In this document: in pieces, positions 15,001-18,000 of the stretch
Position numbering within the stretch: position 1 is the stretch's first letter
How the letters are laid out: every line of letters starts with the position of its first letter
IMG/VR virus record: IMGVR_UViG_2877962823_000010
Source of the DNA: a virus
Taxonomy: Duplodnaviria > Heunggongvirae > Uroviricota > Caudoviricetes
Direction: 5' to 3' (one strand)
Length of the DNA stretch: 64,000 nt
Program-made: the position numbers

Positions 15001-18000
15001 GTTGTTCCGTTGTGGGGAAAGTTATCGCCAGCCAATGGCCTGAAGAGACGTTTGGGTAAAGAGGATAGATGGAGTTTAATGGCCATGAGTATCAAGCGGT
15101 CAAAAAGAAGTTCATCTATTCATTGAAAGCATAAGGCCATCTGAGTATATCCGTAATGATCTGGATATTGTCTATAACATCAATGACCGGACGATAGATA
15201 TCGGTGAGCAGCGTCCTGTATGGCAGGGTGAGGCAGGTGAAAAAACGTCCTGCCATCAACAAGAATCAAGTGCATCCGCTCTCTGGACAGATGGAAAATT
15301 TATTGGATGCAAAAAGATATGAAATAACACCTGTATAGCACGGAGCTTTCTCTGACCGATGCACTTGAAGTTGTTAGGGCTGACCCAGCCTGCTGTTTCT
15401 TTAGGTAAGAGAAAAGAGATTTAGGAGATGAAAGGTCGCAGAGGTGCGGCCTTTTTTATTGAGAGTGGATCTTGAACGGAAATTCTCAAGACTTGAGTCT
15501 TGCATGCAAATCAATTCCTGGATAAACTCGATCTGAGTCAATAACTTAGAGAGAGAGCAAATGGCAAAGTCAAACGTTAGCGTGCAGGCATTCAAGGACT
15601 TCCTTGAAGAGCTTATGTCGCTGAACATAATGAAGGAGGCCACCGCTCGAAATTTAAAAAACTCATCCGCTCGCCTCTTAACGGTAGTCCAAGAAGAGGA
15701 AATGGGTGATGTTACTCAGCTTGATGTGAATGAGCTTGCCGAGCGATACATCAACGCAACTGAGCCGAAGCCTAGCGACAGCAGCATTACTGCATATAAA
15801 AGCCGCATGGAAAGTGCAATCAAAAAGTTTGTAGCTTTCCAGTCTGGTGAAGAAATCCCATACACTCCGATTGACAAAGAATCCAGTGAGGAAAAAGATT
15901 TGACTGGCGAACCAACAAAAGTCGAAGGCAAGGCTAATGCACTTCATACCTATGATCTTCCAGTAGTTCTTCGACCTGAATCAGGGGTTACAGTAACGAT
16001 TAAAGGCATTCCTAACGATATCACAAACGAAGAAGCCGAACGCATCTCTTCAATTCTGAAGGTTTACGTTCGGCCTCAATAATGCAAAAGCATTCAGCAC
16101 AATGTCCAACTCCCCAGTCCGACATTGATGCTGTTTAACCAGAGCCTCCAAAAGGAGCCCTTGTTAAGGTACACAATATTTGCGATGTAACCTTAGCGCG
16201 TCTGGTACATTTTTTCAAGCGGTTGTAGGGCTGCCGCCAATATGAGAAAACACAGATGTCTACATACAATTTGAATGACCAATTCGATCGAGAAGTTCAT
16301 GTGAATGCCTATGAACGGATAAGGCATGGAAATCTTGAACATGTGTGTGAGCATTATCGCTCAAGGCCACACCGCTAATCATCAACCCGGCCTCCATGCC
16401 GGGTTTTCTTTTCCTCTCGCCCAAAAAAACACATAACCAATTGTATTTATTGGAAAATAAATAGATACAACTCACTAAACAACGCAATTCTGATCTCTCC
16501 TTACATCGCCGAGGCAATACACCCACGCTAAAAAACAATACTATTAAATACAAAGCGTTGTAAAAAAACGCCCCGTTTTAGAACAAATTGTATTGACCAA
16601 GTGAAGTACATATCGTACTATTTAACCATCAGCAGGACGCTGGAAGCCAAATGGAACAGACTGGCAGGCTCTTTAAACAACGTCGACTCTCGACTACGTG
16701 GCTGAAAAGCCAGATCACCCAACCACATAAGCTGTGGGATGCAATGCCGAAGCAACCGTCTCAGGAGGAGCTTCGAGATTGCATCGCCAAAGTTTATTCG
16801 GGAGGAATCTATGTCCAGAAAAACAGAATTTAAAGGCACCGCAGCTTCTCGCCGTAGAGCTCGTCGCGCAAACCTGCAAAGTCAGGAGGCGATTAGCTCC
16901 GACAAACTACACAGGCCAACCCCATCACGAGTGGTCTTACAATGCAAACGCAAACCAGCAATGAGAGCAGAAGTAATAACACTGACAACGTTGACCAGAA
17001 AATATGAAGGCTCAACTTGTCTTCCAAATGTAGCTCTTTACGCGGCAGGCTACCGTAAATCCAAACAACTGACAGCAAGATGACTTGTGTTGGTCGCCAG
17101 AAAATGAAATTAGGCAGCAAACCACTTATTTGAGGTGATATATGGAATTTCATGAAAGTGCGATTTGTGATTTTCGCGCTAACGCAAATTCAGTAAAACC
17201 ACAGCCAATTGCAGTTCTTTTTAAAACAATGGGTGCGTGGGCTGTTTTATGCTTCGCCGCTGACGACACTGACGCAAGAATGGCAATAGGACAAGAGATG
17301 GAGATGGACCCGACAAACGATGAATTCATAATTTATGGCGCTCCATCTAATTACTTACTTGATACCTGCAACATTTACAACAAGGCTGCCTGATGGTGGC
17401 CTTTATTTTTGGCATAAACAACAGAATAAACACAGCACTGTGTATTCATTCCAACGAGTGAATACACGGAGCAATGTCGCTCGTAACTAAACAGGAGCCG
17501 ACTTGTTCTGATTATTGGAAATCTTCTTTGCCCTCCAATGTGAGGGCGATTTTTTATCTGTGAGGATATGAACAGATGTCAAACATCAAAAAATACATCA
17601 TTGATTACGACTGGAAAGCATCAATAGAAATTGAAATCGACCATGACGTAATGACAGAGGAAAAACTTCACCAGATTAATAATTTCTGGTCAGACTCTGA
17701 ATACCGACTCAATAAACACGGCTCTTTATTAAATGCTGTATTAATCATGCTGGCGCAACATGCTCTGCTTATAGCAATTTCAAGCGACTTAAATGCATAT
17801 GGTGTTGTGTGTGAGTTCGACTGGAATGATGGAAATGGTCAGGAAGGATGGCCTCCAATGGATGGTAGCGAAGGAATAAGAATTACCGATATCGATACAT
17901 CAGGAATATTTGATTCAGATGATATGACTATCAAAGCCGCCTGAGCGCGGCGTTACCGCATACCAATAACGCTTCACTCGAGGCGTTTTTCGTTATGTAT

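Follow-up and report, generated by a model that had tools for sequence, protein, structure and literature searches.

In lambdoid phages, rex of lambda, bstA of BTP1 and nun of HK022 are all located in the interval between the cI and N genes. The lambda pair rexA-rexB lies 3' of cI and 5' of a terminator and oL/pL-N; the prophage expresses it through co-transcription with cI from pRM, and one of its products, RexB, is a membrane protein. The same map position is occupied by a prophage-expressed two-gene unit in the DNA analysed here, a 64,000-nucleotide (nt) viral stretch (IMG/VR record IMGVR_UViG_2877962823_000010, called the window throughout) that belongs to a Shiga toxin (Stx) phage of the VT2-Sakai/Sp5 type. 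Specifically, a gene for a 173-amino-acid (aa) protein (gene A) is followed by a structured RNA and a 40-codon mini-gene (gene B1), and this arrangement was compared across about 100 loci fetched through protein A. We tentatively propose, as a reading that is possible rather than probable, that A and B1 (ECs1184 and H0092) form an autonomous, toxin-antitoxin-like regulator-effector cassette, that is, an accessory unit or moron, possibly serving addiction or abortive infection/exclusion.

An initial annotation of the window had seen an uncharacterised gene in the rex position and took it for a lysogen-expressed exclusion or defence gene. All elements that it listed exist, no more than a few bases from where it had placed them (for cI, the annotated start is 14406, and the proposed one was two codons longer), and its rex-like interpretation is partly supported: the order cI, gene, terminator, oL/pL and N is that of lambda, the unit has terminators on both sides, and expression in the lysogen holds, as described below. 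Membership of the cI transcript in the manner of rexAB is doubtful and probably does not apply, since a strong predicted terminator and a separate, positionally conserved predicted promoter intervene. Nor does a single gene appear to be the functional unit, which instead comprises protein, structured RNA and mini-gene together. The cassette proteins have no sequence or fold similarity to RexA and RexB (no RexA/RexB match in Pfam, PADLOC or NCBIfam), and in contrast to RexB both are soluble. The interval, in the order cI, A, B1, terminator, oL/pL and N, contains the following features:

14406..15059, plus strand: cI repressor with HTH_3 and Peptidase_S24 domains, annotated in AP000422; context, outside the cassette
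~15069..15408, plus strand: pseudogene of the DUF3024 / PADLOC PDC-S43 family, from alignment to intact orthologues
15430..15461, plus strand: intrinsic terminator of the cI/DUF3024 transcript, stem 15430-15455 and then a U-run
15459..15533, plus strand: predicted promoter-operator of the cassette, from inverted repeats, GATC and a family-wide promoter match
15561..16082, plus strand: gene A, ECs1184, 173 aa, an open reading frame (ORF) matching phrog_2602
16083..16255, plus strand: structured A-B spacer, from fold and covariation
16256..16378, plus strand: gene B1, H0092, 40 aa, phrog_21154
16384..16412, plus strand: intrinsic terminator closing the cassette, the tImm equivalent just 5' of oL/pL, stem 16384-16405
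16593-16621: pL-like promoter TTGACC-17-TACTAT, from a promoter consensus scan

Over 1,361 bases, the interval is 100% identical to the immunity regions of VT2-Sakai/Sp5, Nil2, 1717, 2851 and others, and of the Stx1- and Stx2-converting phages of strain Morioka V526; the allele is present in 234 of 5,426 complete Escherichia coli genomes. In O157 Sakai, cI is ECs1185, gene A is ECs1184 (also H0093, and ORF23 of Sp5), and B1 is H0092, the old ECs1183, which the current RefSeq annotation no longer includes. Relative to the usual map the window is reverse-complemented, which places cI, the cassette and N all on the plus strand.

Protein A is the product of a real ORF, acidic (isoelectric point 4.85) and soluble, as first described, while the accompanying statement that it has no recognisable motif is superseded by a structural model. 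It matches phrog_2602 over its full length (E 3.5e-102), and its family spans at least 657 clusters at 50% identity (E<=1e-3 in a profile search of 1.84 billion representatives), with lengths mostly of 160-205 aa among the best 150 of the 657; homologues at 52-83% identity occur in Salmonella, Cronobacter, Yersinia, Proteus, Providencia, Morganella and Serratia. Two parts of the alignment are conserved, the N-terminal 100 residues with invariant TARN and YxSR motifs and a C-terminal tail of 45 residues (LPxxxRP...IPxDLTxEEAERI), and they are joined by a hypervariable linker that is acidic in the window protein and basic in other members. An AlphaFold model based on 30 sequences contains four helices (predicted local distance difference test, pLDDT, ~90), a disordered linker, and a beta-hairpin plus helix (pLDDT 65-72). 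The resulting layout is a four-helix core-binding-like domain at residues 8-94, a disordered acidic linker at 102-127 and a beta-beta-alpha tail at 130-165, and the N-terminal 95 residues are accordingly modelled as an integrase core-binding domain. Sub-threshold Pfam SAM-like matches in 5 of 65 family members agree with this model, as does the label 'XerD' that one source attaches to a homologue. Sequence searches with A against Pfam, NCBIfam, PADLOC and the PDB returned nothing significant. A search of the PDB with the family profile found nothing either. The protein is a 'hypothetical protein' in every database record examined and is not characterised in any paper found by literature search, in line with its first description as uncharacterised.

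With tyrosine recombinases such as lambda Int, XerC/D and IntI, protein A would share the core-binding (SAM-like) domain. Unlike them, it lacks the catalytic domain with its RHR-Y residues: only the 45-residue tail follows the linker before the protein ends at residue 173, no Phage_integrase match is found, and a 40-residue beta-beta-alpha structure, of a type that also occurs as a stand-alone phage protein (phrog_36396), stands in its place. A therefore cannot be a recombinase, and no nuclease, NTPase, membrane or other effector domain is found in it. MrpR of SPbeta and SroF of phi3T are prophage proteins too, in which an integrase-type DNA-binding fold serves regulation instead of recombination, but they consist of a whole, inactive recombinase fold and act as master repressors, whereas A has the core-binding domain only and occurs alongside a classical cI.

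At a distance of 142-175 bp downstream of A, the sampled loci carry a small ORF, B, and directly behind B comes a hairpin, which is present in every locus and lacks its T-run in a few. Each sampled locus with an intact A and readable downstream DNA carries one of three mutually unrelated B types, and all loci without B1 or B2 carry B3. B1 (40-45 aa, phrog_21154, motif VxVxxYxRxRxGxLExVxxHxRSxP) includes H0092 of the window, so that the 40-codon ORF noted initially is a real gene of a conserved small-protein family; B2 (46-61 aa, phrog_33859) is basic; and B3 (47 aa) carries CxxC...CxC. A sub-threshold treble-clef zinc-finger match of B3 is all that the three types yielded against Pfam, and B2 found nothing in the PDB. 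Among 5,027 PADLOC-DB 2.0 models, neither A nor B1 has a match, and only the neighbouring pseudogene matches a candidate, PDC-S43. When the search was begun from B2, a gene A ended ~155 bp upstream in 32 of 32 viral contigs encoding it. Substitutions in B2 fall mainly on third codon positions (3126:2129:7682 by position), which indicates purifying selection, and in B1 both frame and motif are retained across three diverged groups, with the distance from A constant at 167-174 nt; the B genes are therefore real mini-genes. They are also better conserved than A, with B2 66-85% identical where A is 33-45% identical. Inspection of the spacer sequence revealed no convincing sigma-70 promoter for B within it. 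The terminator that closes the cassette before pL, correctly located at the outset, has a stem at 16384-16405 with a folding energy (dG) of -14.3 and z of -5.2. A Salmonella subgroup at prophage ends (L021/L022 5532-5560, and L054, where L numbers denote compared loci) has a canonical terminator, GCCCCG...CGGGGC plus a T-run of six, directly 3' of A and before the spacer and B1; B there therefore needs read-through or a promoter of its own.

Between the two genes, the sampled loci have a structured spacer of 150-175 nt. The 183-nt A-B interval of the window folds with a minimum free energy (MFE) of -54.4 kcal/mol (z -3.7, 0/200 shuffles) into a hairpin at 16095-16133 and a long-range helix with an inner hairpin at ~16153-16235, and includes a U-run followed by UCAAG at 16206-16219. 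An alignment of eight diverged spacers of the window type gives 34 consensus pairs, which are 94.5% paired compared with 29-47% when slid; six pairs have compensatory changes, and 0/500 shuffles attain this result. A second spacer type, found before most B2 genes, gives 28 pairs; it is 95% paired compared with 35-45% when slid, and compensatory changes are seen in 15 of the 28. This B2-preceding spacer (L055 3514-3671 and 17 other loci) has five helices and invariant UAGNGGAU and CAAG elements. A single RNA family for both types was considered and rejected: the covariance model of the window type fails on the B2 type (best E 0.12), and the types are therefore treated as analogous, not demonstrably homologous. 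Rfam gave no match at E<=1 in the window and only chance-level matches in six related loci, with neither spacer type matched.

Spacer and B types assort independently, and B3 stands behind all three spacer types, an argument for a spacer that acts together with A or host machinery and not with one particular B. In the MFE fold of the window, the U-run at 16206-16213 pairs with a purine-rich stretch, the ribosome-binding region, just 5' of the B1 start, and this predicted pairing suggests that translation of B1 is gated. At the top of the first spacer hairpin (16095-16133; L043, L083, L052, L077 and L079), two exact reverse-complement forms occur, TCCAACTCCCCAGTCCGA and TCGGACTGGGGAGTTGGA; the pattern resembles a small inversion inside the stem, by which the stem is preserved and the loop flipped.

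Upstream of A, a promoter-like element consists of a -35 TTGCAT (15500-15505), a 17-nt spacer and a -10 TAAACT (15523-15528). A palindrome, CAAGACT/AGTCTTG (15487-15502), overlaps the -35, TCTTGA/TCAAGA repeats lie at 15470-15497, and GATC sites are found at 15468 and 15530. The window's TTGCAT-17-TAAACT falls below the threshold of the consensus scan and was recognised by alignment with L043. In 18 of 22 diverse family loci, a TTGnnn-17/18-TAnnnT element with its -10 ending 22-35 nt ahead of the ATG ranks first or second among the promoter-like matches. In a Klebsiella-type subgroup the -35 is overlapped by a different palindrome, GATTCATCGATC...GATCGATGAATC. Hexamers that contain GATC or are of the ATCAAG type show 11-22-fold enrichment over the 160 nt preceding A; GATC alone occurs on average 2.4 times per locus in these 22 loci and 0.46 times in flanking windows (~5-fold), and at least three copies occur in 12 of the 22 loci compared with 0.8% of background windows. 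One GATC just 3' of the -10 is conserved in the window-like group. Together with the upstream terminator, these predicted promoter features lead us to predict an independent transcription unit, probably autoregulated and possibly Dam-sensitive.

That upstream terminator has a stem at 15430-15455 (dG -15.9 kcal/mol, z -4.1, 0/200 shuffles) followed by U6, and an equivalent hairpin is conserved 5' of gene A in Salmonella and Proteus loci. The hairpins initially placed at about 15437..15515 correspond to this terminator hairpin plus the short inverted repeats at 15459-15502. Between cI and the terminator, the start-less 78-codon frame at 15089..15322, rightly suspected of being a gene remnant, is the middle reading frame of a DUF3024 pseudogene; it matches DUF3024 (PF11225, E 1.5e-5), phrog_3467 (1.6e-19) and PADLOC PDC-S43 (3.4e-11). 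Compared with intact 112-aa orthologues in L040/L041, which occupy the same place in related prophages, it carries two 1-bp deletions and a TGG-to-TAA change. Intact copies in relatives match PDC-S43 at E 3e-41. Proteus prophages, some E. coli prophages and phage SH2026Stx1 carry an intact DUF3024 gene in the stretch from cI to the cassette.

The cassette is found between cI and N in lambdoid prophages of E. coli, Salmonella, Proteus and Serratia, sometimes with the intact DUF3024 gene between cI and A. Proteins A that are 99-100% identical stand beside cI proteins only 24-71% identical to that of the window, and beside different N genes. More distant family members reside at prophage ends, by tail-fibre genes and the host junction, and in one locus (L018) the cassette stands alone amid folA-, apaG/apaH- and comM-type genes, in a stretch of 8 kb that has no phage gene. 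Phi24B does not carry it. In L087 (1441-2945), a prophage with a lambda-type cI, a pair of genes for a 192-aa (PDC-M63A-like) and a 309-aa protein replaces the cassette promoter and A except for its last 19 codons, leaving spacer, B1 and terminator in place. This replacement marks the cI-N interval as a swap site for accessory genes. From the diversity of cI and N, the prophage-end sites, L018 and L087, it follows that the cassette is a mobile accessory unit outside the immunity machinery, and these sequence comparisons indicate that it moves independently of immunity specificity. It has the hallmarks of a moron, namely its own predicted promoter and terminator, a place between conserved modules, and presence or absence among relatives.

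Published data add three observations on this locus. In-frame deletions of all unknown genes were attempted in an Sp5 lysogen of K-12 and failed only for ORF21 (ECs1180) and ORF23 (ECs1184); their loss was suggested to be lethal and the genes were proposed to maintain lysogeny (Mondal et al. 2016, PMC5155283). The deletions were made by sacB suicide-vector exchange with cloned flanks, and the step that failed is not stated (PMC5155283). The initial annotation's expectation of expression in the lysogen is borne out in uninduced O157 Sakai, where the ECs1184 protein was recovered in the RNA-associated proteome obtained by TRAPP (total RNA-associated protein purification), with a borderline RNA association (false discovery rate, FDR, 0.065); a polynucleotide kinase (PNK) assay of its RNA binding was at background (PMC7618764, 2025). 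An orphan Hfq site, EcOnc20, was mapped by CRAC (cross-linking and analysis of cDNAs) to 1255628-1255753 (-) of O157 Sakai (Tree et al. 2014, PMC4104026 Table S2). By NC_002695.2 numbering this corresponds to ~16360-16485 of the window, with a small genome-version offset possible, and covers the 3' end of B1, the terminator and 70 nt beyond. This peak, too, points to expression of the unit in Sakai. The Sp5 small RNAs AsxR, AgvB and StxS were ruled out as products of the region, as they are located near stx2 and pR'. The other reportedly non-deletable gene, ECs1180 (ORF21; window 17142-17393, 83 aa, phrog_2471), lies just 3' of N and has no PADLOC match. The domain identity of A, its RNA and mini-gene partners and the anatomy of the family are new, in that they were not found in the papers or database entries searched.

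What speaks for a regulator-effector cassette is the combination of a constant A with three swappable B partners, tight linkage, independent mobility and resistance to deletion. The predicted transcription unit of its own, the operator-like palindromes over the -35, the covarying spacer RNA and the published signs of expression count in its favour as well. One constant partner with swappable partners is a known pattern in toxin-antitoxin families. Type II toxin-antitoxin systems further resemble the cassette in being co-oriented, tightly linked gene pairs with promoter palindromes, and the parallel extends to an upstream gene A that reportedly resists deletion and to a unit that moves alone. 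They differ in that the cassette belongs to no known toxin or antitoxin family, has its genes set apart by a structured RNA and is near-absent from plasmids. In the mechanism we envisage, A, as a nucleic-acid binder derived from a recombinase arm, would bind the palindromic, GATC-rich repeats over its own -35 and thereby determine how much of the whole transcript is made, translation of B would be gated by the spacer RNA, and B would be an effector that is harmful once out of control, which would explain the reported failure to delete ECs1184. The prophage would benefit through addiction, or through abortive infection or exclusion of other phages. As prophage units that may work in a comparable way, dicA / dicF-dicB of Qin and com-mom of Mu join a regulator that binds DNA with a structured or processed RNA and with a small protein that is harmful or tightly gated; in com-mom, the mom promoter is controlled via clustered GATC, and Com is a small zinc-finger protein that acts on an mRNA hairpin. 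Gene order and sequences differ from those of the cassette and there is no homology, so that the likeness concerns a possible mode of working, not a family.

Several points weigh against the proposal. That A binds DNA, that B is toxic and that A controls B are steps we infer. The core-binding assignment rests on predicted structure, with no PDB sequence match, and the model of the C-terminal domain is moderately confident (pLDDT 65-72). The searches described above found no likeness of A or of B1-B3 to a known toxin, antitoxin or defence family; a structured spacer of 150-175 nt is atypical of type II toxin-antitoxin operons, and tiny soluble proteins like B are atypical of toxin-antitoxin-like or abortive-infection modules. 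B1 persists in L087 though nearly all of A is gone, and the promoter is gone there too. Among 72,556 plasmid records, 9 contain the cassette, and these include phage-like or chromosomal ones. Finally, a failed deletion is a negative result with trivial alternatives, for instance toxic flanks carrying pL or an A-less B1.

A more specific version, which we consider somewhat doubtful, is that the cassette represents an undescribed prophage system in which a catalytically empty binder derived from an integrase autoregulates a Dam-sensitive promoter and gates interchangeable mini-protein effectors via a structured leader RNA, again for addiction or abortive infection.

Doubtful to a slightly greater degree is the idea put forward in the initial annotation, here taken as a Rex-like system of superinfection exclusion or defence that the prophage expresses and that acts without addiction by a new mechanism; as one possibility, A would recognise incoming phage DNA or recombination intermediates, and B would act on nucleic acid. 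The position shared with rex, bstA and nun, the moron architecture and the published expression in the lysogen all fit, as do the family members at prophage ends, where accessory genes gather. Neighbours or replacements in the same interval of related phages are the PADLOC candidates PDC-S43 and PDC-M63A, but these entries are candidates only, which makes the guilt by association weak. Set against this idea are also the missing match to any of the PADLOC models and the absence from A of a nuclease, NTPase, membrane or other effector domain.

Unlikely, in our estimate, is a regulator of lysogenic conversion, in which A and/or the spacer RNA and B would reprogramme host expression, perhaps in a Dam-dependent, phase-variable manner. 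Dam control of phase-variable prophage or adhesin promoters is familiar from pap, agn43, gtr and Mu mom, and the GATC clusters upstream of A resemble such promoters, although the sites may merely belong to the operator sequence. The Hfq-bound 3' end and the borderline RNA association of A in TRAPP point in the same direction, and Stx prophages are known to alter host regulation (PMC3355084); on the other side, there is no known target, and ECs1184 was at background in the PNK assay.

Least likely is the proposal of Mondal et al., under which A would maintain lysogeny of Sp5 as a second repressor or co-repressor that silences a lytic function and whose loss induces the prophage: A does adjoin cI, but among the rivals this is the one against which the comparative data argue most clearly, given identical A proteins beside cI alleles of 24-71% identity and different N genes, family members at prophage ends far from immunity regions and, in L018, outside any prophage, the loss of A from L087-type prophages, the many lambdoid phages without the cassette (with the window allele in only 234 of 5,426 E. 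coli genomes), and a likeness to MrpR and SroF that is limited to the core-binding domain where those proteins keep the full recombinase fold.

Gene A of the cassette adjoins the repressor gene of the Stx2a phage type that matters most in the clinic, and ECs1184 has been 'hypothetical' since the Sp5 knockout study named it as one of two non-deletable genes. It now has a modelled domain assignment and a place in a conserved protein-RNA-mini-gene cassette that travels independently of immunity. If the more specific version, with a Dam-sensitive promoter and a structured leader RNA, is true, the defence or toxin-antitoxin-like systems would gain a new and widespread family, whose hundreds of clusters in prophages of Enterobacterales include that of the Stx2a phage of O157 Sakai, and a new structured RNA motif would be added. 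As an addiction or abortive-infection module, the cassette would extend the catalogue of prophage-encoded systems and structured RNAs, and it could affect how stable Stx prophages are and how they are induced, and through this the release of toxin.

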